From Deltaproteobacteria bacterium (lineage in GTDB: Bacteria > CG2-30-53-67), in contig JAADIO010000061.1 in NCBI GenBank assembly GCA_013151235.1, positions 1-51,611 of the forward strand: DNA of 51,611 nt, read 5' to 3'. The notes beneath the pieces are model-generated. The model was not told where the DNA came from. It did not search any database and saw only the letters and a list, made by a program, of their open reading frames with translations. The first letter of the stretch is position 1; each line of letters starts with the position of its first letter. Made by a program: the position numbers and the translations under genes. Shown one piece after another: positions 4,832 to 40,888 of this stretch.

Positions 4832-5104
4832 ATGGACCTGAAACTTATTATCACAGTCTTTGCCACCGTTTTCCTCGCCGAGGTCGCCGACAAGACGCAG
4901 ATCGCGACTTTTCTCTATGCCTCGGACAGCGGCAACTCCCGCCTGGCCGTCTGGATAGGTGCCGTAGCCGCTCTCACCCTGACCTCTACGATCGCTGTGT
5001 TTGCAGGTTACTATCTCTCTCATCAAATCAACGCAAAGATCATGACAAGAATCGCCGGTACAACCTTTATCATCGTGGGAGTCTGGACACTGCTGCGGGG
5101 GTGA
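4832..5104 (+). CDS. TMEM165/GDT1 (UPF0016) family membrane protein, single-repeat form
   Basis: FLAEVADKTQIAT resembles the ExGDKT motif; three hydrophobic helices in 90 aa. Confidence 0.85.
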   Translation: MDLKLIITVFATVFLAEVADKTQIATFLYASDSGNSRLAVWIGAVAALTLTSTIAVFAGYYLSHQINAKIMTRIAGTTFIIVGVWTLLRG

Positions 5105-5145
5105 GCAAAGGGGAGCTGGACGCCTGCCTCCTCACGCTAAAGCAT

Positions 5146-5200
5146 AAAAAATCCCCATCCTCTTTCCCTCTATACTATGCAGGAAAAAAGGATGGGGGAT
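5146..5200 (-). terminator. Intrinsic terminator between convergent genes
   Basis: ATCCCCATCC...GGATGGGGGAT stem with an A-run on the left (U-tract on the minus strand), just after the cytochrome stop. Confidence 0.55.
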
Positions 5201-5220
5201 GGGGTTTGTGTCGGCTTTCT

Positions 5221-7635
5221 CTATTTCCAGGAATCCGCTACAATTTTCTGCAGCTTATCGTAAGGATACTTCCGAACGAGATCCTTGACCGAAAGTTTCT
5301 GATCTCCTTGCCGCATGAAGTGCATCAGCGTCACTGACGCCCAGTAATCGTTATACACGGCCGACCCCTTCAACTGGACCGGGACACCCATCTTGTTGAC
5401 CGTATGACAGGCTGCACAGGTGACCGGTCCCGCATATTTCCCGTCCGGACTGAACTGGAGAGCCTGTTCATGACTGGTCCGGTCCACGGTCCGGTCCGGC
5501 CCTTCATAACGTGTTGGATAAAGACCGTGAATCGATTCATGGCAGGACTGGCACGCCATGTCTCCGTGGGCCTTGGAATACCGATAGAGGGCGTACTTGT
5601 TCGGTTGGTCGATCGGGAAGTATTGCCCTCCTTCACTCTCCACGAAAGGCGCCGCATGGCAGTTGGCACAGTGCGGCTCCGAGGCCGCCAGCCACCAATC
5701 CTTTCCACCGGAGGCTCCGTCGTAGGGAACGGGATTCCCTTTTTTTGCATTCCAAGCAGCAAGAACAAGCTTTCCTTTCGCATCTTTGGATGCACGCACC
5801 ATAGTCGCACCCTTATGGTCCAGGTAAAAGCTGGTTAAAGGATTAGATTTTGTACCCACTTTCGGGTCCGCATAATAATCTCTGAATTTCGCCTCATCCC
5901 CACCGGAGATCGTCTTTACAACCTCCTGAATAGGACGATTACGCAGGGTCTTCCCTTTCTGTGTAACAACATTTGTAAGATTGTCATACCGATAAAGGTC
6001 CTGCGTTAACTGGTTATGACAGTTGGTACAGGTCAGCCCCCGCATTTCGTTGATCTTTTCTCCGTTCTCGTCACGCAGACTGACATTTTCCAGATACCAC
6101 CGTCCAACGTTATTCAGGAAAAAGGGCGGCTTGACGTCGGGATTCGTGTGCGCATCCCGCCTCAGATAGCATCCGCCGCCGGCGATTCTCTGGTCGGCAC
6201 CGGTAAAGCGGGGGATCCCCACATCGTTGATGATCTGGAAGGGATTGCTGGAAAAATCATTCATCTCTTTCGGTTGCCAGTGGGTCGGGTGGCAAGCCTG
6301 ACAACTCTGTGTCCGACCGGCTTTGTCCCCCATCGGAATCACTTGCATGTGAGTGCCGTGTATCGCTTCGGTCAGCGGGATGGCCTGCACCGCTTTATAG
6401 CCGGTCACACCGGAACGCGGTTCATGCAGATTGCCGGAGATGTTGTCTCCATGGCAGTCGGCACAGTTGACCGGCCCGACCGAACCGAGTCGATGCGTTG
6501 AGGCATTCTTGTCATACTCCTTCAGAAACCCGGTTCCAAAATGCTTGTCATGCAGTTCCAGGATGTTGATCGCAGCCTGGGAAAATCGAGCCATGTACTC
6601 GGAGATGTCCGGATATGCGTGCGTCCGGTAAAAATACTCCTCGTCAAAATGAACCAGCCCTTCCTGCCGCGACATAATCGCCGCCCGGCCGTCACCGGAG
6701 TGGCAAGCATAGCAGTTCGGGATATCAACGGGGTTGGTCCCGATATATTGGATAACACGGCCTTTGTGCATGATCGGCTTTTTGTTGCCGTCCTGAAGCT
6801 GCACCACCGACACCTGGTAGGGCTGAAAGTTCTTGTTGGTGATGGTACGCATGGTCTTGGTCAGCCGACTGTCATTAAAAGCCGTCAGGGGAAGCCCCAG
6901 CGCATCCCAGACATAAGAGGATGTCAGTTTTAACGGCACGTTCCGAACCGCCGGAATCAGGGTGTCCGTGAGAACGACATTCCCCCCTTCGTCACCGGCA
7001 TAGTCGAGATAACCACCGGACAACGCCTTACCGCTCGGCCCGGCATCGACCGGAATCTGGATCTCTTTCCCGATGTGCAGACGCTTTTTGGGACTCCAAT
7101 CCTTGGGAACGGTCCCATCCAGGTCCCGGTAAATGAACAGGTGCGTCCAGACATAGTTAGCCATATTGTCACCGGCGTCATCCATCCGGCCATTCCCGTT
7201 CACATCCTTGGCCACCCCCCAGTACCGCATCTTGTTTCCTTCACTGTAGCTGTTGTCCTTGATATAGTAGTAAAGCTTCACATTGTCATCGGGGGAGAGA
7301 AGCTGGGGAAGTTTCCCGTTCTCCCCCGATTTGACCGCCTGGGCCTGGATGCTGTTATAGGGGGGAATGATACAGCAATAAGTCATATTGAACCCGACAC
7401 AGTGCATCCCTAATTCATAGTTGATGAAAATGTTGTACGGGTTTCGAGGATTGTAGGCCACAATCTTCCTCCCGAAAAATCCACCGGTCTTCAGCGTGGA
7501 AGGCTCTAAAAAATCAAGCCCGAAGGGAGGCTTCGTGTCATATCGGGCCTTGGCCAGGAGGGACGGAGTAAAAGAGAAAAGGATCGCTGCAAAAACAACG
7601 GTCATCCACACGCCCCGGTTTTGTAATTTTTTCAT
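5221..7635 (-). CDS. Large secreted multiheme cytochrome c (7 CxxCH)
   Basis: CYACH, CADCH, CQACH, CTNCH, CANCH, CQSCH, CAACH; Sec-type signal peptide; N-terminal ELGMHC...YCCIIPPYN domain; RBS AAGGAGG before ATG 7635. Confidence 0.9.
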   Translation of the reverse strand: MKKLQNRGVWMTVVFAAILFSFTPSLLAKARYDTKPPFGLDFLEPSTLKTGGFFGRKIVAYNPRNPYNIFINYELGMHCVGFNMTYCCIIPPYNSIQAQAVKSGENGKLPQLLSPDDNVKLYYYIKDNSYSEGNKMRYWGVAKDVNGNGRMDDAGDNMANYVWTHLFIYRDLDGTVPKDWSPKKRLHIGKEIQIPVDAGPSGKALSGGYLDYAGDEGGNVVLTDTLIPAVRNVPLKLTSSYVWDALGLPLTAFNDSRLTKTMRTITNKNFQPYQVSVVQLQDGNKKPIMHKGRVIQYIGTNPVDIPNCYACHSGDGRAAIMSRQEGLVHFDEEYFYRTHAYPDISEYMARFSQAAINILELHDKHFGTGFLKEYDKNASTHRLGSVGPVNCADCHGDNISGNLHEPRSGVTGYKAVQAIPLTEAIHGTHMQVIPMGDKAGRTQSCQACHPTHWQPKEMNDFSSNPFQIINDVGIPRFTGADQRIAGGGCYLRRDAHTNPDVKPPFFLNNVGRWYLENVSLRDENGEKINEMRGLTCTNCHNQLTQDLYRYDNLTNVVTQKGKTLRNRPIQEVVKTISGGDEAKFRDYYADPKVGTKSNPLTSFYLDHKGATMVRASKDAKGKLVLAAWNAKKGNPVPYDGASGGKDWWLAASEPHCANCHAAPFVESEGGQYFPIDQPNKYALYRYSKAHGDMACQSCHESIHGLYPTRYEGPDRTVDRTSHEQALQFSPDGKYAGPVTCAACHTVNKMGVPVQLKGSAVYNDYWASVTLMHFMRQGDQKLSVKDLVRKYPYDKLQKIVADSWK

Positions 7636-7655
7636 AGACCCCGCCTCCTTCATGG

Positions 7656-8549
7656 TTAAAAGTCATACTTCATATTCATATAAAGACCGGTATTCACATT
7701 CCGGTTCACAATATTGCCGAAATTAACCACGGCCCCCGTGATCGAGAGTCCCTTGGTCGGGAAATAGGCGATAAAAAAATCGGTCCAGTTATCTTCCTGG
7801 AAGGAACCGATACCGGCAACGCTCTTGTACTCGTTCGGTTTGCCCCGGAACTCCACGCCGACCGCTACATTTGATTCCGGGAGAACAGCCAGGGAGGCTT
7901 CCGGCTCAAAATTCCCGTTCTTGCTGAAGCCGAGATAGCCGGTCTGCGCAGCCTTGGTGTACCGGCCGCTCAGGTTGATCAGTACCGGCATTTTCCACCC
8001 TTTATAGAGCTTGGTCACCGAAAGACAATAATCCAGACCCGAATCATCATCCATACCGGTGGAAGTAAACGCCCCTCCACCGTTCTTGTCCGCGTGGGCT
8101 ATATCCTGGTTCTTTTTATACTCGATGGAAACCGATACCGCGGGAAGAGTATCCGTTTCTTTTAACAGCAAGACTTTAGCATGATAAGTGTCAATCGTCA
8201 ACTCGTCAATGCCGATATTCAGACCGTTCCCGCCCAGGATATTGGTCGTATCGAAAACCGTGCGTGCAAAGCCAAGTTCCAGGCGGTCGCTGATGGTCTC
8301 GTTGAAGTGATATACATTCACATTGAAATTCTGAGGGAAGATGTAGGTCGATCCCACGGACGGATTCCCGAAAAGTTGCCCATCTGCGGGGGGATTCGTC
8401 AGATAGGCCCAGGGAACGAGCCCTCCCCCGCCTTCCCCTTCAATATTGACCACAGGAGGACCTGCGATTGCGGACCTCGTAACCAGGAAGATAAAACTGA
8501 CCAAAAACATCGAAAAAACCGGCAAAGCGTGATAACATTTCTTCATCAT
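7656..8549 (-). CDS. DUF3034-family putative outer-membrane beta-barrel
   Basis: Signal peptide, EGEGGGGLVPWA signature, alternating beta-strand pattern, C-terminal YDF (aromatic terminal residue typical of outer-membrane proteins); RBS AGGAGG before ATG 8549. Confidence 0.75.
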   Translation of the reverse strand: MMKKCYHALPVFSMFLVSFIFLVTRSAIAGPPVVNIEGEGGGGLVPWAYLTNPPADGQLFGNPSVGSTYIFPQNFNVNVYHFNETISDRLELGFARTVFDTTNILGGNGLNIGIDELTIDTYHAKVLLLKETDTLPAVSVSIEYKKNQDIAHADKNGGGAFTSTGMDDDSGLDYCLSVTKLYKGWKMPVLINLSGRYTKAAQTGYLGFSKNGNFEPEASLAVLPESNVAVGVEFRGKPNEYKSVAGIGSFQEDNWTDFFIAYFPTKGLSITGAVVNFGNIVNRNVNTGLYMNMKYDF

Positions 8550-8818
8550 TCTGTACCTCCTAAATACATTAGCTTGCATCAAGTTTACGATCGATCGTCC
8601 CTTCCCTCCCTACCTCCTCCCCCCCTTCTGTGGAATTATCAAGCCTGACATTTTACCGGACAGACCCACCCGCACCGGCATATAAAAACGACAGCGGTTA
8701 CGCATTTTCCCATGGTCTGTTTTGTTGTGCCGGGGCGAGAATCGTCACCGGGTGCATTGTGCATGAGTACGCGAACCCATACTCACGCAGACCCGGTGTC
8801 AACGATAGGATATAACAA

Positions 8819-8834
8819 TGCAATCCCCGTGCCG
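8819..8834 (-). promoter_or_regulatory. sigma54 (-24/-12) promoter for the DUF3034-cytochrome operon
   Basis: CGGCACGGGGATTGCA matches YGGCACG-N4-TTGCW with exact GG-N10-GC spacing. Confidence 0.85.
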
Positions 8835-8873
8835 ACAAGCTGGAGACGGCGGATGACACGTCATTTTGGGAGA

Positions 8874-8886
8874 CAACCTATTGAAA
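8874..8886 (-). promoter_or_regulatory. IHF-binding site upstream of the sigma54 promoter
   Basis: TTTCAATAGGTTG (1 mismatch to WATCAANNNNTTR) in an AT-rich context about 40 bp upstream of the -24 box. Confidence 0.55.
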
Positions 8887-9010
8887 TAATTAAAAACAGA
8901 AAGATACTGGATGGGCAAATTCCCCGGCCGCCGCAACAAATACCGGGTGGACAATCGTGCAGCATGCCCTCCCACACAGTGCATAAATCGTGCGGGAAGT
9001 CGAAAAAGGA

Positions 9011-10339
9011 TTAGATCAGACCGTACTTTTTCCGTTTGCGGTAGAGGGTGGAAACATTGATGCCAAGCTCCTTCGCGACCATGGCGAGGGTGTTGGGAAA
9101 ACCGGAATATTTTTCTTCCAGTTCCAGCAGAAAATCCTTCTCGGTTTTCTTCCTTTCCAGAACCTCCGTCGGGAAGATCTGGAAATGTTGTACATCAAGG
9201 ATATCGCCGCGGGAAAGAACAACCCCCCTTTCAATGTTGTTCTCCAATTCCCGAACGTTCCCCGGCCAGTCATACTGAAGAAAACGGGTCAGAAGCTCCG
9301 AAGGAATGACCTGAATCGCTTTTTTGTGTTTTTCGTTGAACCGCTCCAGAAAAGTATTGGCCAGAAGATAGATATCGTCTTTTCTTTCCCGAAGAGGAGG
9401 GATCACGATGGGAACCACATTGAGACGGAAGTAGAGATCCTCCCGGAACCGGCCTTTCCGGATCGCCTCTTCCATGTCCACGTTGGTGGAGGCCACCACC
9501 CGGACATCGATCCGGACGGTTTCATTGCTTCCTAACCTTTCGAATTCCATCTCCTGAAGGACTCGCAACAGCTTGGCTTGCATGCTCATGGAAATATCCC
9601 CGATCTCGTCGAGAAAGAGGGTTCCGCCGTCGGCCTGTTCAAACCGCCCTCTACGGTCCCGGTGGGCACCGGTAAAAGCTCCCCGAACATGGCCGAAGAG
9701 TTCCGTTTCCAGGAGAGTGTCGGGCAGGGCCGTACAGTTGATCTTGACGAAGACCTTTTCCGAACGGGGACTGTTGTAGTGTATCGCCCGGGCGATCAGT
9801 TCCTTCCCGGTCCCTGTCTCGCCCCGAATCATGACCGTGGCATCAGTCCCGGCGACATTGTCCACAACGCCCAGAAGGTCGAGCATCTTTTTGTTATTCG
9901 TAATAATCCGCTCGAAACGGTACTGCTTCTTCACCTCCTTCCGGAGGCCACGGACATCTTCAACAAGGTGCTTCTTCTCCACGGCCTGTTTCAGCAGGAG
10001 AAACATCTCTTCATAGTTCAGCGGTTTGGTGAGATAATTGAAAGCCCCTTTTTTCATCGCCTCCACGGCCATTTCAATCGATCCGAAAGCCGTCACCATG
10101 ATCACCGGAAGATCAGGGTACTTTCCCCGCGTCTGTTCCAGAAACTCGATCCCCGTCATTTCAGGCATTTTGTAGTCAACGATCACGGCATCACAGGTCG
10201 TTTGCACCAATACATCCAGCCCCTCCCTGCCTGAAGGAGCCGTTTCCACCCGGTAGCCCTGGGTGGCCAGGTTCAGCCGCATCACCTCCAGGATTGCCGG
10301 CTCATCATCTACAACAAGAATGGTTGATTGTTCAGGCAT
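9011..10339 (-). CDS. NtrC-family sigma54-dependent response regulator
   Basis: Receiver domain (VVDDE, D-YKMP), Walker [33 protein letters not shown], Fis-type HTH. Confidence 0.96.
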
Positions 10340-12425
10340 CCGTTTTTCCCTTCAGTGTGATTTTGATGGGAAGCTGTATCACCACTTCCGTACCCGGTCC
10401 ATCGGTCCGTTTTTGAACTTTCAGTTCCCCCTGGTGCTGAGTGATGATCTGGCGGACGATGGCCAGCCCCAAACCAGTCCCATTGACTTTGGTCGTAAAA
10501 AAGGGCTTAAAAATGGAATCCATGAGTTCTTCCGGAATTCCCCGTCCCGTATCCCGAATCGCAACCTCCACCCAATCCCCTGTCCGGCCGTTTTCCATAT
10601 TCCGGGTCGCAAGTTGAAGAATCCCCCCCGTCGGCATAGCCTCAATGGCGTTCTCCAGCAAGTTGATGATCACCCGCTGAATCTGGTTGGCATCAATACA
10701 GAGAGGAGGGATCCCGGGGTCAAACTCCTTCACCAGCGAAAGACCGGCCTGCCGGATCTCTTCCACGAGAAAGGAGGTTGACTCCTCGAGGAGTTGATTC
10801 AGGTCGCATTCGTTGAAATTCGGCACCATCGGATTAGAGACCTTCAGCAGATCGGAAGTGACGTTATTCAGCCGCTCCACCTGCCCCCGGACCAGGTTGG
10901 AGATATTCAGGATCTCGGGGTCTTCCTGATACTTCGTAATGAGATAATGCACCCCTCCCTCGATGGCATTCAGGGGATTCCGGACATCGTGAGCAACCTT
11001 GGCGGCGACTTCACCCAGCTCGGCCAAATGACGGGAAATGTTGAGTTCTTCGCGCATTTTTTCTTTATCGGTAATATCCTCAAAGACAACAATGATCGGA
11101 GAATTTCCGGCCCGATTATCCCCATGAAGCGGCAGGACGCTCAAACTCAAGGTCATCCTCTCCCCCCCCATCTTCCGGACCGTCATTTCATGTCCCACAA
11201 GGGGGTTCCCTTCCTCCCTATACCGCTCAATCGCCTGGAGAATCATACCGAAGAATGCATTGCACCGGGTACAGATCTTCTGAACCTCGACGATACTCTT
11301 TCCCAGGAGCTGAGTCAGATCTCCTCCGAGGATCTTCTGGGCGGCATGGTTGTAGGTCCGGATAATCAGGTGAGAATCCATGGAAATAACGGCGGAGGAG
11401 AGACTGTTCAAGATCCGTTCGTTGTAAACCCGTAACTCTTCATTCTCACGGTTGGCCCGCTCAAGCTGTTTTGCATAGACTTCAATATTCTCCTTGGCTT
11501 CCTTCATCCGTTCCGTGTTATAAACCAGGTCCCGCACCATAATGTCGAAACCGTCGTTAAGCTGTTCCAACTCGTCACCGCTGTTTTTCCGATAGACAAC
11601 ACATTCCCGGCAGTCCCCGATCTTCTGGGCGTAGACCCCCTGCACCTCGCCTTTACAGAAAGTCCCCGCCATCACCCAGCACTTCTCCTCCCGATTCTGA
11701 TAAGAAGGACATTTCTCTTGTTTGCAATCCAGCTCCTCCCAGCAGTAGACATAGTTCATCGGCATCCGCTTTTCCGGAAACTTGCCGTGTAGTACATCGT
11801 AGATCTTGTCGGTCAGAAGGTGAACGGGATAGGAGACCAGTTTGACAACGATAAAGGCAGCAATCAGGCCGAAGACGGCGACAAAGAGAATGACACTCAG
11901 GATGTTTTCCAGCGTCGCCCGTCTTGGATGTTTGAAAATACGACGGAGGGTAATCGGCTCAAACGTAACGATCGTACTCCCCAGGTACTGATTCCCGCTG
12001 TAAACCGGGGCATAGACCCCTTCGATTCCCTCGGCGGCGTTTTGAAAGTAGTAATACCCTTTTTCCCGGTAGGCCTTCCGTGCAGCGGCACCCACCGGGA
12101 CCCTTTTCCCGATCCCCTCCAGATGAGTCTGGGCAACCACGATCCCCTCCCGGTTCAGGATGGAACAGTCCCGGACGTCGGACAATTTCCCCACAATCTG
12201 CACCAGGCGGTTCAGCATCATCTTGTGCTCGATCAGCAGAATGGGCGGAACATTCTCGGCAAGATTAATGGCCAGGGCGATATGTTCCTGGCGAATGATC
12301 GTTCTTTCATTGCGGACCACGAGGAGACTCCCCGCCCCGCCGATGATGACCACAAAGAGGATATAGGTGACGATCACCTTCTGGTTAATCGACAAATGCC
12401 TGTAGTATTTGAAGAACCGGATCAT
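10332..12425 (-). CDS. Membrane sensor histidine kinase (periplasmic Cache-like domain, HAMP with Cys-rich two-CW insert, PAS, HisKA, HATPase)
   Basis: Two TM helices, CWEELDC...CW..AGTFC..QG...K..DCREC insert, AHDVRNPL H-box, NLLENA, DTGRG, FTTK, GTGLGL. Confidence 0.93.
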   Translation of the reverse strand: MIRFFKYYRHLSINQKVIVTYILFVVIIGGAGSLLVVRNERTIIRQEHIALAINLAENVPPILLIEHKMMLNRLVQIVGKLSDVRDCSILNREGIVVAQTHLEGIGKRVPVGAAARKAYREKGYYYFQNAAEGIEGVYAPVYSGNQYLGSTIVTFEPITLRRIFKHPRRATLENILSVILFVAVFGLIAAFIVVKLVSYPVHLLTDKIYDVLHGKFPEKRMPMNYVYCWEELDCKQEKCPSYQNREEKCWVMAGTFCKGEVQGVYAQKIGDCRECVVYRKNSGDELEQLNDGFDIMVRDLVYNTERMKEAKENIEVYAKQLERANRENEELRVYNERILNSLSSAVISMDSHLIIRTYNHAAQKILGGDLTQLLGKSIVEVQKICTRCNAFFGMILQAIERYREEGNPLVGHEMTVRKMGGERMTLSLSVLPLHGDNRAGNSPIIVVFEDITDKEKMREELNISRHLAELGEVAAKVAHDVRNPLNAIEGGVHYLITKYQEDPEILNISNLVRGQVERLNNVTSDLLKVSNPMVPNFNECDLNQLLEESTSFLVEEIRQAGLSLVKEFDPGIPPLCIDANQIQRVIINLLENAIEAMPTGGILQLATRNMENGRTGDWVEVAIRDTGRGIPEELMDSIFKPFFTTKVNGTGLGLAIVRQIITQHQGELKVQKRTDGPGTEVVIQLPIKITLKGKTDA

Positions 12426-13174
12426 TTTATCGTTCTCCAGCCCGAGGGAAGCGTCGCCAGCCCCTCGTGCAGAAGCGTCTCCACACCGTTCAGCCGCTTT
12501 TCGATCCGGGCCAGCTTAAAGGTATGCCAGTCCTGCCGACAGGCAATGAGTTCATGCTGTGCCAGATGCAGAAAACCCTCTGCCTTTGAAATCTTGCACC
12601 CTCTCGCCCGGGTCGCATGAAGCTTGGTCTCGGTCCGGTCCACCTTCCGGGAAATACGGTTCATCTTCAGCAGGACCTCTTTCGCCTGATTGAGAATACC
12701 GGGACGGCTGCTCATTTTTGTATTATGGCATATGCCGCAGAAGAGTTCCAACTGTGTCGGGCGGAGGACCTTCGTCGACATGGCATCATGACAGGTAACG
12801 CAGTTCGGCCCGACCCCTTTGGTCATCAGCATCCTGTAATGGACACTCATCTTGAATTCGAGGAATTCGTGTTTATGACACCGCCCGCAAAGCCGGGGGA
12901 TATTCGTATAGTAGACGGAACTCTTCGGGTTCATCGAATCATAGACCCCTTCATGGGCCGCCTTTTTACTCTCTTTTCCCGGGTTTCCCCCATGACAATT
13001 ATTGCAGGTCACCCCCATACGGGAGTGAACGGAATCACGCCACTCGGCATGGCGTTCCTTCATGGAAGGGCGGACAAGCCTGGCATGGCATGTAACACAG
13101 CTATCGCTTCCGAAGGCAGGCACGGAGAAGCAAAGGATGAATAAGATCAGAAGAAAAAAGCGCAATACCGTCAT
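12422..13174 (-). CDS. Periplasmic pentaheme cytochrome c with C-terminal helical bundle
   Basis: Signal peptide; CVTCH, CNNCH, CGRCH, CVTCH, CGICH; ATGA overlap with the kinase start. Confidence 0.9.
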   Translation of the reverse strand: MTVLRFFLLILFILCFSVPAFGSDSCVTCHARLVRPSMKERHAEWRDSVHSRMGVTCNNCHGGNPGKESKKAAHEGVYDSMNPKSSVYYTNIPRLCGRCHKHEFLEFKMSVHYRMLMTKGVGPNCVTCHDAMSTKVLRPTQLELFCGICHNTKMSSRPGILNQAKEVLLKMNRISRKVDRTETKLHATRARGCKISKAEGFLHLAQHELIACRQDWHTFKLARIEKRLNGVETLLHEGLATLPSGWRTIK

Positions 13175-13288
13175 GGGGCACAGTATACATAATTTTTCAC
13201 TCTTTTTCTACCTTTGAAGAGCGCTGTGCTTTAGGCGGGAGATCGGGGAAACTTTTCTGTACCGGACGATGGAGATCCTGTAAACCCG

Positions 13289-14239
13289 TCAGAAAGCGCC
13301 GATCTTACGGAAACGTTCAAGTCGGTTTGCCGTCAACTGCTCCGGGGGCATCTTGGAAAGATCTTCGAGAACCTCCAGCAGGGCCGTCTTCAAGGTCTCC
13401 GCCATCTCCTCATGATTTCTGTGTGCCCCCCCCAAGGGTTCCGGAAGAATCCGGTCCACGATGCCCATCTTTTCCAGATCCTGGGCGGTCATCTTCAAGG
13501 CCTTTGCCGCCTCCTCCGCCTTCGAGGTCTCCCTCCAGAGGATCGAGGAACAGGACTCGGGAGAGATTACGGAATAGACCGCATTCTCCAGGATGATCGT
13601 CACATCCCCCACGCCGATGGCGAGTGCCCCACCGCTCCCCCCCTCTCCGGAAACCACCACAACGATGGGCGTTTTCAGGTTGGACATCTCGAAGAGGTTC
13701 CGGGCGATAGCCTCCCCCTGTCCCCGTTCTTCTGCACCAATGCCGGGATAGGCCCCCGGCGTATCGATAAAGGTAATGATCGGCATTTTGAATTTTTCCG
13801 CCAGTCTCATGATCCGCAGAGCCTTGCGATATCCCTCCGGTGCCGGCATACCGAAATTCCGATCAATATTCTCCCGTGTGTTGCGCCCCTTGTGATGACC
13901 CACAACAGCCACGGGGATCCCGTCCAGCCGTGCCAGACCGGCAACAATGGCAGGATCATCCCCGTAGGTCCGGTCACCGTGCAGCTCGTAGAACTCCTCC
14001 ATCATGAGCGATACGTAATCAAGGATATTGGGCCGCCGGGCATGCCGGGCCAGGAGCGTCTTCTGCCAGGGAGAAAGATTGGAATAAACGTTCCGCTGAA
14101 GCTGATGGAGCTTTTTCTGAAGACGGTGCAGTTCATCCGTACAATCACGCCCTTCCATACTGGAGACCTGTCGCAGCTCTTCCATCCTGCTCTCCAGCTC
14201 CATGATCGGTTTTTCAAATTCGAGATAGTTGTTGGCCAT
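13289..14239 (-). CDS. accA: Acetyl-CoA carboxylase carboxyltransferase alpha subunit
   Basis: YLEFEKPI, ELHGDR, NFGMPAPEGYRKA, DTPGAYPGIGAEERGQ, GEGGSGGALA. Confidence 0.98.
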   Translation of the reverse strand: MANNYLEFEKPIMELESRMEELRQVSSMEGRDCTDELHRLQKKLHQLQRNVYSNLSPWQKTLLARHARRPNILDYVSLMMEEFYELHGDRTYGDDPAIVAGLARLDGIPVAVVGHHKGRNTRENIDRNFGMPAPEGYRKALRIMRLAEKFKMPIITFIDTPGAYPGIGAEERGQGEAIARNLFEMSNLKTPIVVVVSGEGGSGGALAIGVGDVTIILENAVYSVISPESCSSILWRETSKAEEAAKALKMTAQDLEKMGIVDRILPEPLGGAHRNHEEMAETLKTALLEVLEDLSKMPPEQLTANRLERFRKIGAF

Positions 14240-33070: not shown

Positions 33071-36000
33071 ATGACCGACACGATTGTAAATCTTCAAAAC
33101 CTCTGGGACCGTATTCTCGCCCCGGAAGGGGACCGGGTCGACCTGGCCGGGCTGGCGGGGTCCTCCCGGGCGTACCTGCTGGCCCGCCTGGAAGAATTCC
33201 GGCCCCATCCCCTCCTGGTGATTACTTCTTCTCCCTCGGAGGCGGAACGGTTTTTTAACGATCTCTCCTTTTTCCTGCGGGGAGCCTCACTGGGAGAAAC
33301 GGTCGTCCTCTTTCCACAGTGGGAGGTCCTCCCCTATGATGACAGAAGCCCGCACCCGGAGATCGTTCGGCAACGTCTGACGGCCCTGAACCGGCTGGCC
33401 GGAAACGAAAACCTCATCACCATCACAACCGTACGGGCGGCGATCCAGAAGGTCCTGCCGAAAGAGGCCTTGTCAAGAGGCTCCTTCACGCTCCATGTCG
33501 GAGAGTCCCTGGAGCCGGACCTCTTGACGGAAGAGCTGATCCATTTCGGATACCGTCAGACCGATCTCGTGGAATGTCCCGGCACCTTCTGCAGGAGAGG
33601 GGGGATTCTTGATCTCTTTCCCCCGAATCTTGACACCCCTTTGCGTCTCGATTATTTCGGCGATGAGATCGAATCCATCCGTCGTTTCTCCCCTGAAAAT
33701 CAGCGTTCGACGGACCCGGTCGATTCCTGCACCATCCTTCTTTCCCGGGAAATCCTGCTCGATCCGGCATCCATGGCATCCCTGCACCCGGACGGTGAGA
33801 TGCAGCGATGCCCGGCATTGTCACAGATTGAGGAGGGGATCATTCCCGAAGGAATTGAGTTTTATGCCCCTCTTTTCACGCCGCGCATGGCCACCCTCTT
33901 TGATTATCTCCCGGAGAATACCGGAGTGGTCATCGACCAACCTGCAAAAGTCGAAGAGCAGGCGGAAAAGTTTCACCATGAGATTGCCGAACGCCATGAC
34001 ATCGTCCGGGAACAGGGGAAAGCTCCCTGTGCCGCAGAGGAACTCTATCTCGATGCAAAAGATTTCCAGGCGGTACTGGAGACAAAACACCGGGTATGGT
34101 TTGTCCTGTCGGGAGGAGAAGAACCACAAGAACTTTTTTTCAAAACGGAGTCCATCGGCGGGTTGGCCCGTCCCGGCAAAAGCAGGATCACCGCTTTGAG
34201 TGAGACCCTTCAGACCCTTCGGAATGAAACGGACCTTTCCATCGTGGTCCGTACGAAAGGGCAGGCCGAACGATTGATGGAGATCCTGACGGAAGAGGAA
34301 GGAATCCCCTGTCGGCGGATCGACCATCTGCCGGAGGTCCCCAGGCCGAAAGGGGCGGTCGGAATCCTGATCGCCCCCCTCTCTTCGGGGTTTCGTTTTC
34401 CCCTCTTCGGCCTGACCCTGATCACCGAGGAAGAGATCTTCGGCATTAAACGGAGCCGCCGTCCGCCCCGTCAGGTCAAGGAAGGTCCCTTTGTCACCCG
34501 CCTTTCCGATCTTGCGGAAGGGAATTTCGTCGTTCATATCGATCATGGCATCGGGATCTACCGGGGCCTGCGGGAGGTGGAGGTCGAGGGAAGCGCCCGG
34601 GACCTGATCCGGATCGAATATGCAGGCAAAGATCTCCTCTACCTGCCTCCGGAAAAGCTGCACCTCATGCAGAAATACTCCGGCAGCGATGAACATGCCG
34701 TCCAGATCAGCAAGTTGGGGGGAACCGGCTGGGAAAAACTGAAGGGAAAAATCAAGAAATCCATCGAAGAGATGTCCCGGGAGCTGATCGAACTTTATGC
34801 CGAACGGAAGGTCGCACAAGGAACCGCCTTCTCCCCTCCGGACAGCCTCTTCCGCGAATTTGAAGAAACCTTCGAATATGATGAGACACCGGATCAGGCG
34901 CGGGCCATCGAGGAGGTCCTCCAGGATATGCAAAAACCAACCCCCATGGACCGGCTTGTCTGCGGGGACGTGGGGTACGGCAAAACCGAGGTAGCAATCC
35001 GGGCCGCCTTCAAAGCGGCTCTCGACGGGAAACAGACCGCCATCCTCGTTCCGACAACCCTCCTGGCCCGTCAGCATGCCGAAAACTTTGCCAGGCGCTT
35101 CCGCCCCTTTCCGGTGGAGGTGGCGATGTTGAGCCGTTTTGCGAACCGAAGCGAACAGAAAGTGACCCTGGAGAAGATCAAAAAGGGCGAAACGGACATC
35201 CTGATCGGAACACACCGCCTCCTCTCCCGGGACATCGCCTTCAAAAATCTTGGACTTCTCATCATCGACGAGGAACAACGCTTCGGCGTTCGCCATAAGG
35301 AAAAGCTTAAACAGCTCCGGAAAGAGGTGGACGTTCTCACCCTGACCGCCACCCCGATTCCCCGGACACTGGAGATGTCTCTGCTCGGCATCCGGGACAT
35401 CAGTATCATCAATACCCCCCCGGAGGACCGGCTCTCCATTGATACCCGCGTGGTCCGATTCTCGGAGGGGATCATCCGGGAGGCATGCCTGAGAGAACTC
35501 GACCGGGGCGGGCAGATATTCTTCGTCCATAACCGGGTACGGGACATCGACCGGATGGCAGAGAGGATGCGACGGATCGTCCCCGAGGCACGGGTGGACG
35601 TCGCCCACGGGCAGATGGAGCAGCACCATCTGCAGGAAGTCATGAATCGCTTCCTCGATCGGGAAACGGACCTGCTGGTCACGACAACCATCATTGAGTC
35701 GGGTCTCGATATTCCCAACGCCAACACCATGCTTATCCATCAGCCTGAAATGTTTGGACTCGGGCAGCTTTACCAGCTCCGGGGACGGATCGGACGGACT
35801 CGTCATCGGGCTTACGCCTATCTTCTGACCCGGGCCGACCGCTCCATGACCGAGGTGGCCCGTCAGCGGCTGCAGGTCATTCAGGAGTTGACCGAGCTCG
35901 GATCGGGCTTTCAACTGGCCGCCCGGGACCTTGAAATCCGGGGAGCGGGAAATCTTCTGGGCGCGAAACAATCGGGTTTTATCTCCGCCGTAGGGATCGA

Positions 36001-36499
36001 CCTCTACATGCAGCTCATCGAAGAAGTCTCCCTCAAGTTAAAAGGAGAAAAACGGGAAGAGACGATTGAGCCTTCCCTCCGGATACGCGTCTCGGCCCGC
36101 ATCCCGAAGGCTTACATCCGGGAGGATCGTCTTCGTCTCGATCTCTACCGCCGTCTGGCTCTTCTCGATTCAAACGAAGAACTTTACCGGATTGCAGATG
36201 AGATGAAGGACCGTTTCGGCACGCCCCCGAAGGAAGTCCACAATCTTTTGCGGCTGGCGGAGTTGCGTATCCTCTGCAGAAAGCTGCGTGTTTTGGAGAT
36301 CCTCGAACAGAAAAAGGGAATCCGTCTGAGCTTCGACCGGGAAACCCCGGTTTCCCGGGAACGGATCATTACGCTTTTGCAAAGCGCTCCCCATCTCATC
36401 CACCCGCTGTCCGAATACCAGTTGGAATTCATGAAGGAAGGAGAGTCCTTCGGCGAGACCTGGGTCCGGATGAAAAACTTCTTGCAGGAACTGATCTGA
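33071..36499 (+). CDS. mfd: Transcription-repair coupling factor
   Basis: RGGILD, VVHIDHGIG, CGDVGYGKTEVA, DEEQRFGV, TATPIPRTL, QLRGRIGR, DLEIRGAGNLLG. Confidence 0.98.
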   Translation: MTDTIVNLQNLWDRILAPEGDRVDLAGLAGSSRAYLLARLEEFRPHPLLVITSSPSEAERFFNDLSFFLRGASLGETVVLFPQWEVLPYDDRSPHPEIVRQRLTALNRLAGNENLITITTVRAAIQKVLPKEALSRGSFTLHVGESLEPDLLTEELIHFGYRQTDLVECPGTFCRRGGILDLFPPNLDTPLRLDYFGDEIESIRRFSPENQRSTDPVDSCTILLSREILLDPASMASLHPDGEMQRCPALSQIEEGIIPEGIEFYAPLFTPRMATLFDYLPENTGVVIDQPAKVEEQAEKFHHEIAERHDIVREQGKAPCAAEELYLDAKDFQAVLETKHRVWFVLSGGEEPQELFFKTESIGGLARPGKSRITALSETLQTLRNETDLSIVVRTKGQAERLMEILTEEEGIPCRRIDHLPEVPRPKGAVGILIAPLSSGFRFPLFGLTLITEEEIFGIKRSRRPPRQVKEGPFVTRLSDLAEGNFVVHIDHGIGIYRGLREVEVEGSARDLIRIEYAGKDLLYLPPEKLHLMQKYSGSDEHAVQISKLGGTGWEKLKGKIKKSIEEMSRELIELYAERKVAQGTAFSPPDSLFREFEETFEYDETPDQARAIEEVLQDMQKPTPMDRLVCGDVGYGKTEVAIRAAFKAALDGKQTAILVPTTLLARQHAENFARRFRPFPVEVAMLSRFANRSEQKVTLEKIKKGETDILIGTHRLLSRDIAFKNLGLLIIDEEQRFGVRHKEKLKQLRKEVDVLTLTATPIPRTLEMSLLGIRDISIINTPPEDRLSIDTRVVRFSEGIIREACLRELDRGGQIFFVHNRVRDIDRMAERMRRIVPEARVDVAHGQMEQHHLQEVMNRFLDRETDLLVTTTIIESGLDIPNANTMLIHQPEMFGLGQLYQLRGRIGRTRHRAYAYLLTRADRSMTEVARQRLQVIQELTELGSGFQLAARDLEIRGAGNLLGAKQSGFISAVGIDLYMQLIEEVSLKLKGEKREETIEPSLRIRVSARIPKAYIREDRLRLDLYRRLALLDSNEELYRIADEMKDRFGTPPKEVHNLLRLAELRILCRKLRVLEILEQKKGIRLSFDRETPVSRERIITLLQSAPHLIHPLSEYQLEFMKEGESFGETWVRMKNFLQELI

Positions 36500-36518
36500 T
36501 TATGATAGGAACCCAGTC

Positions 36519-37463
36519 ATGTCGCATTCCCCCATTCTCCGGGCACCCATTTTCCGGACACTGTTCTTCATGCTCTTCGTCCCGATCTTGTTCTCCCGAT
36601 GCAGCAAGATCCCGGAGAAGGAGGAGGCGTCCGTTGTCGCCCGGGTGAACGGCGAGCCCATCCTGCAGGCGGAACTGGACCGGGAGATCCTCCATATTGA
36701 CAACAGTTTTTCCCTGCCGGTGGAACGGAAACCGGACCGGAAGTTCTCGGAGGAAATCCTGCGCCGGATGATCCGGCGACGCCTCCTGTTACAGGAAGCG
36801 AAAAAACTGGGAATGACCCTTTCCGGCAAGGAGGCGGCAAAAATGGTGGCCGAACGAAAGGGAGATCTCTCCCGGAAGGATCTGGAAACCTTGCTCAAAA
36901 ATACCAACCACAATTACGATGAATGGAAGAAAGGGATCATCGAAGACGCACTGATCGAACGGCTGATACAACAACAGATCAATGCAAAACTCCATGTCAG
37001 TGATGAAGAACTGATCGCCTACTATGAAGCCCACCCCAAAGAGTTTGATCTACCGGAACGGGTACACGTTCGGCAGATTGTCGTAGCAAAAAAAGAAGAG
37101 GCCGAAAAAATCCGCAAACGACTCGTTGACGGGAAGGAGGACTTCGCCCTGGTTGCCGTGGAGGTCTCACTCAGCCCCGATGCAGAGCAGGGTGGAGACA
37201 TCGGCACTTTTGCCCGGGGACAAATGCCCCCGGAGTTCGACAAGACCTGTTTTGCGCTGGAAGTCGGCGAAATCAGCCCGGTCGTGAAATCCCCTTACGG
37301 CTACCACCTCTTTCGTGTAGAGCAGCACTTCCCGGCGGGACGGCAGACCTTCAAAGAGGCCCGAAAGGAGCTTTACAAAAAATTCATGGCCAGGAAACGG
37401 GAGGAGGCCTTTGAACATTATCAGGAAAAACTCTGGAACCAGTCAGAGATCATCTTTCATTGA
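36519..37463 (+). CDS. SurA/PrsA-like parvulin peptidyl-prolyl isomerase (possible lipoprotein)
   Basis: VVARVNGEPI, VHVRQIVV, GGDIG, F.L..GEIS..VKSPYGYHL. Confidence 0.88.
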   Translation: MSHSPILRAPIFRTLFFMLFVPILFSRCSKIPEKEEASVVARVNGEPILQAELDREILHIDNSFSLPVERKPDRKFSEEILRRMIRRRLLLQEAKKLGMTLSGKEAAKMVAERKGDLSRKDLETLLKNTNHNYDEWKKGIIEDALIERLIQQQINAKLHVSDEELIAYYEAHPKEFDLPERVHVRQIVVAKKEEAEKIRKRLVDGKEDFALVAVEVSLSPDAEQGGDIGTFARGQMPPEFDKTCFALEVGEISPVVKSPYGYHLFRVEQHFPAGRQTFKEARKELYKKFMARKREEAFEHYQEKLWNQSEIIFH

Positions 37464-37486
37464 TCCTTCATCCATGGAGAAGCGGT

Positions 37487-38562
37487 ATGATCCGGAAATC
37501 CTTTATATTTGATGCTCTCGTAAAAAGTTGTTTTCCGGATTCCGTTCATGGTTCGACAGGCTCACCACGAACGGAATATCAATCACTTACACCGTTCGCC
37601 CTGAGCTTGTCGAAGGGCTTTTCGTGACTTTTTACGAGTCCATCATATTTATCCTCTTTCTTCTCGGAACGCTCGGCACCGCCCACGCGGAGATTCTCGA
37701 CCGAATCGTCGCCGTTGTCAACAACGATGTCATTACCCTAAGCGAGCTGAAACAGGCGGAGACCTCTATCCTTCAAACCGGCCCGTCTTCCTCGAAACCG
37801 GCCCCGGCCAAACTCCTTAACGAACTCATCAACAAAAAAATAAAACTGCAAAAAGCCAAGGAGTTGGGGATCGTCGTCTCCGATAAAACCGTGGACGACG
37901 GCGTCAACGAGATCGCCCAACGAAACGGTCTGACGGAAACAATTCTGAAAGAAAAACTCAAGAAGGAGGGCATCCCCTGGAACGACTACAGGGAACAGAT
38001 CCGCGACCAGATAATTCTGACTCGGATGCTGAACCGGGAAATCCGCTCCAAGATTGTCCTGCTCCCCGAAGAAGCGAAGGAATACTATCTGAAGCACCAG
38101 GACCGTTTCGTCCGTAAAGCAAAAAAACATATCCTCAGGATACTGCTGACCCTGCCCGAAGGAGCAACACAGGAGATCATCGACGCCCGAAAGGAGGAGA
38201 TGGAGAAATTACGAAAACGGATCGTAAGCGGTGAGAATTTTCGGCAACTTGCGATTCGTACCTCTGAGGGACCGGAAAGCAAAAACGGGGGAGACCTCGG
38301 TGACTTTGCCGAAGGTGAACTCCGGGAAGATTTGAGCCGGGCGATTGCAGGATTGAAGGCCGGAGACGTCTCTTCCGTCTTCCGGACACCGGAGGGAATT
38401 ACCCTTCTGATGGTCGAAGAGATCAAAAAGCCCAAACCCATTCCTTTTGAGAAGGTCCAAGATTCAATCCGGAAGGCCCTCTACCAGGAAAAGGTAAAGA
38501 AAAAATACGAGTCCTGGATCAAGGAGCTACGCGAGGAAGCCTACATCGAGATTAAACTCTGA
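37487..38562 (+). pseudogene. surA: SurA-like parvulin PPIase with its signal peptide interrupted by a MITE (frameshifted from the native ATG; possibly rescued by an alternative start)
   Basis: RBS GGAG + ATG 37487. Removing 37511-37650 restores MIRKSFIFILFLLGTLGTAHA-EILDRIVAVVNNDVIT. The downstream GGDLG and PPIase domain are intact. Confidence 0.75.
37511..37644 (+). mobile_element. MITE copy 1 (134 bp)
   Basis: TIRs GATGCTCTCGTAAAAAGT / ACTTTTTACGAGTCCATC; TSD ATATTT at 37505-37510 and 37645-37650; internal REP-like hairpins and IHF consensus TATCAATCACTTA. Confidence 0.9.
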
Positions 38563-39535
38563 TCACATTCTTTTTTCCCATATGTTCTTCTACGATCCGG
38601 GCCAGGACATTGATGAACTCGGGGTCGATGTTGATCGATTCGGTACGGCGGTATTCCGTAATCCCGCGTTCCTTCGCCCGGTCCCGGTAGAGCATATCGA
38701 TCTCGTAGAGGGTCTCGATATGATCGGAGACGAAGCTGACGGGGACCATAAGAAGCGCCTTTTTTCCCGCAGCGGCAAGCCGGTCGATCACCTCTTCCGT
38801 GCCGGGCCGCATCCACTTCACCGGACCGCTCCGGCTCTGGAAGGCCAGGTGATGGGAGATCCCGTCGACACGTTCGACAACCCCTCGGACGGTCTTTTCG
38901 ATCTCCGATAGATAGGGATCACCCTCGTCGATCATCCTCTGAGGAAGGGCATGGGCCGAGAAGACGACCTCGACTTCGTCCCTGCATTCTTCCGGAAAAT
39001 CGGCAAGTCCCTCCCGAACTTTTGATGCCAGAACATCGAGATAAGCGGGGTGGTCGCACCAGCTCCGGACGGCGGTATATTCTTTCCTGATCCCGGCTTT
39101 TTCAAAAGCCCGGTCGAGGTCGTTCAGGCTGGACCCGGTGGTGGTCCGGGAATAGTGCGGGTAGAGGGGAAGGGCGATCACCTTATCCGCCTCTTCCCGT
39201 TCGATTTCGGCAACGACCTCGGAGGCGGTGGGAGAAGTATAGCGCATGGCGATCCGGACGGAGGCATCGATCCCGGATCTGCGAAGCCGATCCTGCAACG
39301 CCTCCCCCTGCTGTTGCGTGATCTTCAGGATGGGGGACCCCCCTCCGATTTTCCGGTAGTTGTCGAGAACGTTTTTCAACCGGAAGCAAACGATCAGGCG
39401 AGAAAAGAGAGGCTGCAAGGGAAGACGAATGATCTCCCGGTCGGAGAAAAGGCGCATCAGAAAGGGACGGACTTCATCAAGCGTTCCCGGCCCCCCGAGA
39501 TTGAGAAGAATCACGGCGATCTTCTGAGACATCAC
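38552..39535 (-). CDS. hemH: Ferrochelatase
   Basis: LLNLGGP, YRKIGGGSP, AMRY, PLYPHYS.TTTGS, FSAH.LP, FQSRSGP..W..P, FVSDHIETLYEID. Confidence 0.96.
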   Translation of the reverse strand: MMSQKIAVILLNLGGPGTLDEVRPFLMRLFSDREIIRLPLQPLFSRLIVCFRLKNVLDNYRKIGGGSPILKITQQQGEALQDRLRRSGIDASVRIAMRYTSPTASEVVAEIEREEADKVIALPLYPHYSRTTTGSSLNDLDRAFEKAGIRKEYTAVRSWCDHPAYLDVLASKVREGLADFPEECRDEVEVVFSAHALPQRMIDEGDPYLSEIEKTVRGVVERVDGISHHLAFQSRSGPVKWMRPGTEEVIDRLAAAGKKALLMVPVSFVSDHIETLYEIDMLYRDRAKERGITEYRRTESINIDPEFINVLARIVEEHMGKKNVIRV

Positions 39536-40566
39536 CCGCTCTTTTTGCTGTAACGATGGACGGCATCGATAAATGCCTTCGCATGATCCTCCGGCGTGGG
39601 GGGGAGGATCCCGTGACCGAGATTGAAGATGTGCCCCGGCGCACCGCCGTTCAATTCGAGGATCTTTTGCACCCGCCGCTCAATCTCCGGAATCGGAGCA
39701 AAGAGGGCGGTGGGGTCGAGGTTCCCCTGGACGGCGGTTCCCGGTCCGAGAATCCGTCGGGCTTCATCAAGATCAATCCGCCAGTCGATACCGACCACAT
39801 CGGAGCCGGCTTCTTTAATCTTTGAAAGCAGGGCCGATCCGGTTCCCACATAATGGATCACCGGAACGTCTTCCCGGTTCACCCCTTCGATAACCCGCCT
39901 GGTGTAGGGAAGCGCAAAAATCTCGTAATCGCCGGGACTAAGAATCCCTCCCCAGGTATCGAAAATCTGGACGGCCTGGGCGCCGGCGGCGATCTGGGCA
40001 TTGAGATAGCGGATGATCGTCCCGGTGATCTTGTCCATCAGAGCGGCGTAGAGGTCGGGTTCCTGATACATGAGGCTCTTGAGGTGGATATAACTTTTTG
40101 AGCCGCCTCCTTCGACCATGTAGGTCGCCAGGGTAAACGGAGCACCGGAGAAACCGATAAGAGGGACCTTCCCTTCCAGTTCTTTGCGAAGCAGCCGGAC
40201 AGCCTCCATCACGAAGGGGACCGACTCCTCCGGGTCGGGAACACGGAGGGCATCAATCTGCGCCCGGTTCCGGATCGGGTCGGGAAAGAGGGGCGCCGGG
40301 GTGAACTTCAGTTCCATCCCCATCGGCTCGATCGGGATCAGGATGTCGGAAAAGAGGATGGCCGCATCAACACCGACCTCGTCCACGGGAAGCAGGGTCG
40401 CCGCGGCCGCCAGTTCCGGAGTCTTGCACATGGTCAGAAAGTCCGCCTTCTTCCGCAGCTCCCGGTAACTTTTCAGAAACCGGCCTGCCTGCCGCATCAT
40501 CCAGACCGGGGTCTTCTCTACCGGTTCGCCTCGGCAGGCCCGTAAGAACAGATCATTGAATGCCAT
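39532..40566 (-). CDS. hemE: Uroporphyrinogen decarboxylase
   Basis: PVWMMRQAGR, DAAILFSDIL, GFSGAPFTLATY, QGNLDP, IFNLGHGI. Confidence 0.98.
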   Translation of the reverse strand: MAFNDLFLRACRGEPVEKTPVWMMRQAGRFLKSYRELRKKADFLTMCKTPELAAAATLLPVDEVGVDAAILFSDILIPIEPMGMELKFTPAPLFPDPIRNRAQIDALRVPDPEESVPFVMEAVRLLRKELEGKVPLIGFSGAPFTLATYMVEGGGSKSYIHLKSLMYQEPDLYAALMDKITGTIIRYLNAQIAAGAQAVQIFDTWGGILSPGDYEIFALPYTRRVIEGVNREDVPVIHYVGTGSALLSKIKEAGSDVVGIDWRIDLDEARRILGPGTAVQGNLDPTALFAPIPEIERRVQKILELNGGAPGHIFNLGHGILPPTPEDHAKAFIDAVHRYSKKSG

Positions 40567-40594
40567 AACTTCTCCCTTTGAAAAGTCGATTCTT

Positions 40595-40874
40595 CACCAG
40601 ACGCAAGGAACGCAAAGAGAACGGGTAACTGATTGTTTTCGTTCTTTTTATTTGCTCGTCCAAGCCGTTGATCTTGACCCTGAACTTTGTGCCTGTGTGC
40701 CTTTGACCCGCTGTGTCTCGTCTTTCTTCCCCGTGACTCCCCGTGTTCCCTGTGGTTCAATGCTTTTGCTTTTGACTCTGACCTTTCTTTTCTCCGCGTC
40801 CTCTGCGTCTTTGCGGTGAGTGCTTTTCGCCTTTGATTATTGTTTCTCTCTGTGATCTCTGTGTGCTCCGTGAT
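40595..40874 (-). repeat. Compound orphan array of 8/9-nt repeat triplets inside the heme operon
   Basis: Minus strand: ATCACGGAG CACACAGAG ATCACAGAG; ACCGCAAAG ACGCAGAGG ACGCGGAG; ACCACAGGG AACACGGGG AGTCACGGGG; GGCACACAG GCACAAAG. One oppositely oriented module lies at 40595-40619. Confidence 0.7.
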
Positions 40875-40888
40875 AAAAGTGTTTCCGC

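Follow-up and report, generated by a model that had tools for sequence, protein, structure and literature searches.

KdgM and NanC are specific outer-membrane channels for acidic sugars that are encoded with catabolic genes, COG4313 channels serve hydrophobic compounds, and FapF serves amyloid subunits. A different kind of barrel takes part in the porin-cytochrome conduits MtrAB, PioAB and Geobacter Pcc, in which electrons cross the outer membrane; a Tenderiales preprint gives the MtrB barrel 26 strands and predicts 28 for UetC. In the Tor system of E. coli, the pentaheme cytochrome TorC binds the periplasmic detector of the kinase TorS with a KD near 1 µM (PMC11727998). Here we compare with these systems a locus in a 51,611-nucleotide stretch of a Deltaproteobacteria bacterium (GTDB lineage CG2-30-53-67; GenBank assembly GCA_013151235.1, contig JAADIO010000061.1, positions 1 to 51,611, forward strand), which we call the window; its source genome is G000. 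On the minus strand, five co-directional open reading frames (ORFs) encode a pentaheme cytochrome c (cyt5), a sensor histidine kinase (HK), an NtrC-type response regulator, a β-barrel of the DUF3034 family and a heptaheme cytochrome c (cyt7), and a terminator follows. The regulatory trio and a sigma-54 promoter behind it are conserved before cyt7-family cytochromes in related genomes. At about even confidence, we favor the view that the promoter at this locus controls a small-solute channel together with a periplasmic heptaheme oxidoreductase.

A first-pass annotation of this DNA had described five co-directional genes with coupled overlaps and a terminator, and the ORF map agrees. The cyt5 and kinase genes overlap by 4 nt in an ATGA junction and the kinase and regulator genes by 8 nt. 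The gap from DUF3034 to cyt7 is 2 nt to the first ATG of cyt7 and 20 nt to the second; a terminator-like hairpin was looked for by eye in this short gap, and none was seen. At the end of the operon, the stem of the intrinsic terminator is followed by AUUUUUUAU. The hairpin folds at -30.1 kcal/mol (z -4.5), none of 200 shuffled sequences folds equally well, and its loop is longer than 8 nt.

The 428-nt spacer between the regulator and DUF3034 genes holds the predicted sigma-54 promoter, cGGCACggggaTTGCA, on the correct strand. It has one mismatch to TGGCAC-N5-TTGCW and is the sole site with at most one mismatch within the window. Such sites are expected by chance at a mean of 0.84 per whole window, and a single match by itself proves nothing. 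The promoter carries weight because of its strand, its position in this spacer, and the zero-mismatch TGGCAC-N5-TTGCT promoters that stand at the equivalent place in all four orthologous sister loci (G004, G005, G006 and G007). Its -24 and -12 elements and their spacing are those of the class, and it is placed before the gene it would regulate and beside an activator gene. The first-pass annotation called this promoter perfect; the promoter and its conserved place stand, but one mismatch makes it nearly rather than fully so.

The same annotation placed an IHF site upstream of the promoter, and we find there an IHF-like element, TTTCAAtaggTTG, one mismatch from the IHF consensus WATCAANNNNTTR. 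The element is conserved in the sister genus (G004) and at a paralogous locus, and an element resembling TTCAA-N4-TTG precedes the promoter by 40-60 nt in G004, G005 and G006 as well as at the paralogous locus. A GCACGAT box, a candidate activator site, is present just after the regulator gene in all five regulator-target spacers of the family and is aligned between G000 and G004. The G000 genome has 54 sigma-54-like sites, four of them with GCACGAT within 350 nt; only the present locus has two boxes. An Rfam scan of positions 5000-13400 (E<=1) returned only a sub-threshold PK-repZ match on the opposite strand, and the leader of about 260 nt matches no Rfam family.

Our comparisons covered the nine genomes of the family to which G000 belongs, with G004 representing a sister genus, and 14 species genomes for the phylum-level group. 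All three genes of the trio were read at the same chromosomal site (dnaE-accA … lysM-aspS) in six of the nine family genomes. Across G000, G004, G005, G006 and G007, the order dnaE-accA-cyt5-HK-NtrC-[sigma-54 promoter]-targets-…-lysM-aspS is syntenic, and the first downstream cytochrome gene is always a member of the cyt7 family. In G004, dnaE-accA are followed by cyt5 (56% identity), the kinase (67%), the regulator (74%) and DUF3034 (84%), then by the first 38 residues of cyt7 at the contig end. A second G004 contig opens with the last 40 cyt7 residues (85% identity) and continues with a 9-heme paralogue, a 7-heme paralogue, lysM and aspS. The targets in the other three genomes are a 1063-aa 9-heme cyt7 paralogue (G007); a 1027-aa 9-heme paralogue, a PpiC-type isomerase and a 776-aa 7-heme paralogue (G006); and a TSP3/NIDO/dockerin protein followed by a 1039-aa 9-heme paralogue (G005). 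Because the trio and promoter precede cyt7-family cytochromes in these sister genera, the trio was ancestrally a switch for such cytochromes. DUF3034 and the 810-aa cyt7 are an insertion common to G000 and G004, and in G000 the older targets have moved to a different contig. The proposed sigma-54 switch, with its adjacent two-component system and translationally coupled pentaheme gene, is thus conserved across the family.

Some features of these related loci are recorded here for their own sake. The first gene behind the promoter in G005 (L154 8151-9986) encodes 611 aa with thrombospondin type 3 repeats, a NIDO domain and a weak dockerin match, and looks like a surface or matrix-type protein. 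The relocated paralogue cluster of G000 (contig C25, L155 3989-14084) comprises a 1725-aa ORF with 16 CxxCH motifs, a 479-aa ORF, a 737-aa 7-heme paralogue, together with an FGE-sulfatase-like gene (PF03781, E 8e-57); the proximity of such an enzyme to a family with invariant extra cysteines could hint at cysteine modification. Internal stops that had been flagged in cyt7 paralogues as possible recoding are really flanking stops, and those ORFs are intact. In G002 (L168), a GAF-GGDEF gene on the opposite strand comes after the regulator, and a similar gene occupies that place in G001 (L169). The cyt5 gene of G001 seems to be split into two frames, and the NtrC gene was not identified there.

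Matches to Sigma54_activat (1.5e-71), Response_reg (1.7e-29) and HTH_8 (4e-5), with GAFTGA in the translation, assign the regulator to the NtrC class. From its sequence, the kinase has two transmembrane helices around a periplasmic domain of about 135 aa, a HAMP-like linker, and PAS, HisKA and HATPase_c domains. Between two HAMP-like helices (residues 226-276; window 11600-11750, minus strand) lies a cytoplasmic Cys-rich insertion (CWEELDCKQEKCPSY...CW..AGTFC...GDCRxC), outside any Pfam model. Its seven cysteines (228, 234, 239, 249, 257, 272 and 275) are invariant in five orthologues and form a candidate Fe-S or zinc site. The periplasmic domain, the PAS domain and this insertion are possible inputs to the kinase besides cyt5.

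Cyt5, like cyt7, is matched in Pfam only by generic multiheme models, with Cytochrome_C7 (4.3e-8) among its hits. Its match to PF03264 (NapC/NirT), at 26.7 bits (cut-off 24.1), spans only profile positions 27-72 of 174, and its NCBIfam matches to NrfH, NrfB and DmsE fall far under their cut-offs. The first CxxCH follows directly on an N-terminal hydrophobic helix. Best matches of 43-72% identity, likely orthologues, are present in all eight other family genomes, and cyt5 lies directly upstream of the kinase gene in all eight loci read. These include G001 and G002 (93% and 89% complete), in which we found no cyt7-family match at E<=1e-20. Since cyt5 is kept beside the kinase where cyt7-family cytochromes were not found, it appears tied to the sensor rather than to the enzyme, and we infer that it modulates the kinase. 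A complex prediction of cyt5 (residues 23-250) with the periplasmic domain of the kinase (38-172) and four hemes, from 5-row alignments, gave ipSAE values of 0.01 and 0.00 (mark 0.32), which speak neither for nor against binding. A paralogous cyt5-like gene on contig C7 is not beside a kinase, and we claim no recurrent cytochrome-kinase pairing.

The DUF3034 protein matches PF11231 over the full length of the family (E 1e-48; 166.6 bits, cut-off 25; profile positions 4-254 of 255). Close database homologues of it (P0123-P0128) are 59-75% identical. A Pfam scan of the barrel returned PF11231 alone and gave no assignment to the MtrB/PioB families; NCBIfam names neither DUF3034 nor cyt7. Besides a signal peptide, the sequence has a conserved glycine-rich N-terminal motif, IEGEGGGGLvPWA, and ends in ...KYDF. 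That the protein would model as an outer-membrane β-barrel was predicted in the first-pass annotation, and an AlphaFold2 (AF2) model built from a 73-sequence alignment confirms it, with about 12 strands (predicted local distance difference test, pLDDT, 90.9; predicted template modeling score 0.85). An all-against-all comparison with VIA-align put 12-stranded outer-membrane barrels at the top, with FapF (Z 20.3), KdgM (19.6), a COG4313 channel (18.3), NanC (18.1) and autotransporter β-domains (15-17), and Foldseek likewise places 12-stranded outer-membrane channels and translocators as nearest neighbors. The modeled pore, with 12 strands, is wide enough for a small solute or an unfolded polypeptide but too narrow for a folded heme protein. 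The Uet cluster was considered as a relative and rejected: UetC, with its 28 predicted strands, is unrelated to DUF3034. Judged from the listed records, our literature search returned no paper about the function of DUF3034.

Cyt7 has seven CxxCH motifs in 810 aa and a heme-free N-terminal domain of about 275 aa (residues 36-310). It has 1019 relatives, and the best 120 of these are 62-84% identical, belong to several phyla and carry no family name. Carriers of the family include Aquificota, Methylacidiphilaceae, Chloroflexaceae, Nitrospirota, Persephonella, Methylacidiphilum and Syntrophales, among others. The columns of a 28-sequence alignment that spans several phyla average 73% identity, and conservation in the heme-free domain (67% identity, 30% invariant columns) equals that in the heme part. 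H84, C85, C93, C94 and C495 are invariant. The three-heme C-terminal region (residues 656-754) matches PF22113, the MtrC/MtrF domain II/IV model, at 37.9 bits (cut-off 30). MtrC and OmcA are decaheme lipoproteins built of two pentaheme and two β-barrel domains; cyt7, with seven CxxCH motifs, this partial match and a signal peptide that lacks a Cys lipobox, falls outside that class. Sequence and profile searches of the PDB for cyt7 returned nothing below E 0.01, and a search of the ESM Atlas returned only unnamed multiheme clusters, none with a structure. The Chloroflexaceae homologues (L021, L022, L027 and L028) are 1057-1198 aa long, and in L028 a membrane anchor and two class-I cytochrome c domains (CAICH, CLACH) are fused ahead of the conserved N-domain. 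Strong conservation, few hemes for its length and the redox partner fused in Chloroflexaceae make cyt7 a better fit to an oxidoreductase than to a wire.

In the same genus as G000, the genome G008 (L015 3000-9800) encodes a 74% identical cyt7 divergent from an NMT1-like binding protein, two CobW/G3E-type GTPases and a uroporphyrinogen-decarboxylase-like methyltransferase, all read by eye; there is no regulator nearby.

Outside this family of genomes, DUF3034 has other company. We collected 80 further DUF3034 loci from metagenomes with a 19-row alignment; many of the loci are short. An exported Bac_globin gene lies directly downstream of DUF3034 in 35 of the 80, a dCache-HAMP-GGDEF-EAL gene is nearby in 35 of the 80, and a small exported Cys-x2-His-x2-Met protein, to which Pfam gives only a sub-threshold CarboxypepD_reg match, is nearby in 26 of the 80. 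The locus described here is a second, independent case of DUF3034 directly before the gene of an exported heme protein.

Taken together, our data suggest the following scheme. The first operon, probably expressed constitutively at a low level, would supply a periplasmic or membrane-anchored pentaheme cytochrome, the sensor kinase and the NtrC-type activator. A redox or small-molecule signal would lead the kinase to phosphorylate the activator, which would bind the GCACGAT boxes, while an IHF-type bend would help it to open the sigma-54 promoter. The second operon would yield a 12-stranded DUF3034 barrel that admits a small solute through the outer membrane, and a heptaheme protein, soluble in the periplasm. 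The latter would most likely be an oxidoreductase with the solute as its substrate and with other c-type cytochromes as its electron partners. That the barrel passes a solute, that cyt7 works as an enzyme and not as a wire, and which way the electrons run are inferred parts of this scheme. The first-pass annotation offered a channel and heme enzyme acting on a small compound as its second option, and this option fits best.

A number of results weigh against this reading, and several of them also count against the first option of that annotation, a new porin-cytochrome system in the sense of Mtr, Pio and Pcc, which our data do not support. In such a true conduit, cyt7 or part of it would dock in or on the DUF3034 barrel and electrons would cross the outer membrane as in MtrAB, PioAB and Pcc. 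The barrel and multiheme genes are adjacent and taken as co-transcribed, the three-heme region of cyt7 resembles MtrC/MtrF above the model's cut-off, and cyt7 paralogues in G000 and its kin adjoin surface-type proteins such as the TSP3/NIDO/dockerin protein of G005. Against these points, a barrel of about 12 strands, beside the 26 of MtrB and the 28 predicted for UetC, is too narrow to sheathe a heme protein, and seven hemes in 810 aa with a 275-aa heme-free domain do not make a dense wire. Moreover, the DUF3034-cyt7 pair was found only in G000 and the syntenic sister genus G004. No DUF3034 or cyt5 match was found in any of 25 other cyt7 loci from species-representative genomes, 20 of which include 1 kb or more of upstream sequence; the best DUF3034 tblastn hit is at E 0.84. 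The neighbors of these loci vary by phylum, and the Chloroflexaceae loci that were read have no DUF3034 nearby. None of the 80 other DUF3034 loci has a cyt7 match, and the five that have an ORF with at least two CxxCH motifs within 8 kb have just two motifs each. Among 401 sampled genomes, DUF3034 occurs in six, cyt7 (E<=1e-40) in 14 and both in two; the remaining four DUF3034 genomes have no cyt7 match. Two genomes of the same genus as G000 encode a 74-75% identical cyt7 in a different context, with no DUF3034. The first-pass annotation had named a pairing not conserved in other genomes as one outcome that would refute it, and this is largely what the neighborhood counts give. The pairing traces to one evolutionary event, and its rarity implies that DUF3034 and cyt7 do not need each other in general. 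We consider a conduit very improbable.

The rarity of the pair raises a second alternative, that DUF3034 and cyt7 have a common promoter and no common function, a general sigma-54-controlled envelope or signaling barrel having been inserted before a regulated cytochrome gene, as in the globin and GGDEF-EAL module. G000 itself encodes a second DUF3034 protein of 292 aa, 86% identical to the first (contig C54 ~35999-41315; L003 8000-13316), preceded by a PAS-sigma-54 activator (582 aa) and by a separate sigma-54-like promoter, TGGCACattatGTGCA. Its partners differ from those at the present locus, being a REC-only protein and then a NosL domain fused to a MetA-like outer-membrane barrel, with no cytochrome. 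DUF3034 may therefore be a generic sigma-54-controlled envelope protein, and both the metagenomic globin and GGDEF-EAL neighborhoods and the ancestral targets without DUF3034 in sister genera are consistent with an incidental insertion. The order and tight spacing of DUF3034 and cyt7 have nonetheless been retained in two genera, and DUF3034 is followed by the gene of an exported heme protein both here and in the canonical context, which speaks for a common theme and against coincidence; we regard an incidental insertion as rather unlikely. The switch has its own loose end. In G001 and G002, the trio site is kept, yet no target cytochrome, sigma-54 promoter or GCACGAT box is adjacent, so the regulon is not fixed. 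As for cyt5, it may be a carrier of the NapC/NirT/TorC kind that brings electrons from the quinol pool or respiratory chain to cyt7-family cytochromes and gives no input to the sensor, the kinase then sensing through its own periplasmic, Cys-rich and PAS domains. The heme motif right behind the N-terminal helix, as in NapC/NirT proteins, and the partial NapC/NirT match agree with such a role. Among the 120 longer cyt5 relatives listed, we saw no kinase or other signaling Pfam domain, and about 23, counted by eye, are fused to membrane cytochrome b domains, a pattern that fits an electron carrier. The grouping of the cyt5 gene with the regulators rather than behind the sigma-54 promoter, and its persistence by the kinase in G001 and G002, do not. 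The two roles are not exclusive, TorC doing both, and we hold a pure carrier to be possible, if the less probable option. The heptaheme protein adds two further reservations about the channel-and-oxidoreductase reading: we know of no enzymatic activity, active-site motif or solved relative of cyt7, and AF2 modeling of the protein, with 28 homologues aligned, reached a pLDDT of only 50.5; the model was left out of the fold searches.

The paralogous DUF3034 locus deserves a remark of its own. Further along it are genes that we read by eye as a CcoI/CopA-type ATPase, a FixH-like protein and a FixG-like protein, and a copper-related theme is possible there.

The locus is flanked by accA/dnaE on one side and by a GDT1-like gene, a LysM gene and aspS on the other. 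On the plus strand of the window (4832-5104), a 90-aa half-size ORF of the GDT1 family (divalent cation/proton antiporters) converges on the end of cyt7, with the terminator region in common. Coordinates of the features are collected in Table 1.

Table 1. Features of the cyt5-to-cyt7 locus, in window positions.
Feature	Positions	Strand	Description
cyt5	12422-13174	-	250 aa; CxxCH x5 at 26, 57, 96, 125, 146; exported or N-terminally anchored; C-terminal helical region
Sensor histidine kinase (HK)	10332-12425	-	697 aa; Pfam PAS, HisKA, HATPase_c
NtrC-type response regulator	9011-10339	-	442 aa; REC + AAA+ with GAFTGA + HTH_8
Candidate activator sites, GCACGAT x2	8954-8960 and 8987-8993	-	126 and 159 nt upstream of promoter
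IHF-like site TTTCAAtaggTTG	8874-8886	-	between GCACGAT boxes and promoter
Predicted sigma-54 promoter cGGCACggggaTTGCA	8819-8834	-	-24 GG / -12 GC
DUF3034 barrel	ORF 7656-8582; probable ATG 8549 behind AGGAGG	-	297 aa; PF11231; signal peptide
cyt7	5221-7653	-	810 aa; exported; 7 CxxCH + Cys 85, 93, 94, 495
Intrinsic terminator, operon end	5144-5197	-	17-bp stem + U-run

The heptaheme family is large and very strongly conserved, and this locus and four sister loci show that in one lineage it is under a dedicated sigma-54 two-component switch. In two genomes, cyt7 is predicted to be transcribed with a putative outer-membrane channel. This arrangement speaks for a periplasmic activity under regulation and points to a candidate partner. 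A search of the literature for heptaheme cytochromes and Methylacidiphilum found no paper, supplementary files being outside the search. The source organism is uncultured, and the value of the locus is that of a lead; cultured Methylacidiphilum (such as M. fumariolicum SolV) and Persephonella carry orthologues and are practical entry points. A bolder proposal, which we think unlikely, is that DUF3034 proteins are dedicated channels for exported heme proteins (in Proteobacteria the truncated globins, at this locus a heptaheme enzyme) and let through a single type of small, redox-active ligand, for which sulfide, a metal ion or an N- or S-oxide would be examples. Under the same proposal, cyt5 and its kinase would form a periplasmic redox sensor of a new kind, with the multiheme cytochrome acting as ligand of the kinase. 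If true, this would be a first functional handle on a heptaheme family of methane-, sulfur- and hydrogen-oxidizing bacteria.

The locus resembles MtrCAB, PioAB and Geobacter Pcc in that an outer-membrane barrel gene stands beside a multiheme cytochrome gene and part of cyt7 matches an MtrC/MtrF model. It differs in that DUF3034 belongs to another family with about 12 strands, set against the 26 of MtrB, cyt7 is heme-poor with a large heme-free domain and no lipobox, and the pair is confined to two kin genomes. With KdgM/NanC, COG4313 channels and FapF, the barrel shares fold and size (Z 18-20; root-mean-square deviation 2.0-3.1 Å over 170-225 residues); there is no sequence similarity (5-12% identity), and the IEG-GGGGL-PWA motif is specific to DUF3034. 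The proteobacterial globin module has the same barrel family followed by the gene of an exported heme protein, beside a periplasm-sensing signaling protein. Its output is c-di-GMP, whereas here it is sigma-54 transcription; its heme protein is a small globin rather than a multiheme cytochrome, the barrels are about 30% identical, and the 'cupredoxin-like' label on its small protein comes from a motif read by eye. Like the TorT/TorS/TorR system with TorC of E. coli (PMC11727998), the locus has a two-component system in control of a respiratory operon and a pentaheme cytochrome, TorC binding the kinase detector and cyt5 having five hemes and a partial NapC/NirT match. The TorC gene is in the target operon, whereas the cyt5 gene is grouped with those of the regulators. 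The activators also differ, TorR being of the OmpR type and acting with sigma-70 and the present one being NtrC-type and sigma-54-dependent, and TorC binds TorS, whereas cyt5 is a putative partner of its kinase. On the favored reading, the unit is a respiratory operon under sigma-54 two-component control with a specific outer-membrane channel, each of a known kind, built from two uncharacterized families.

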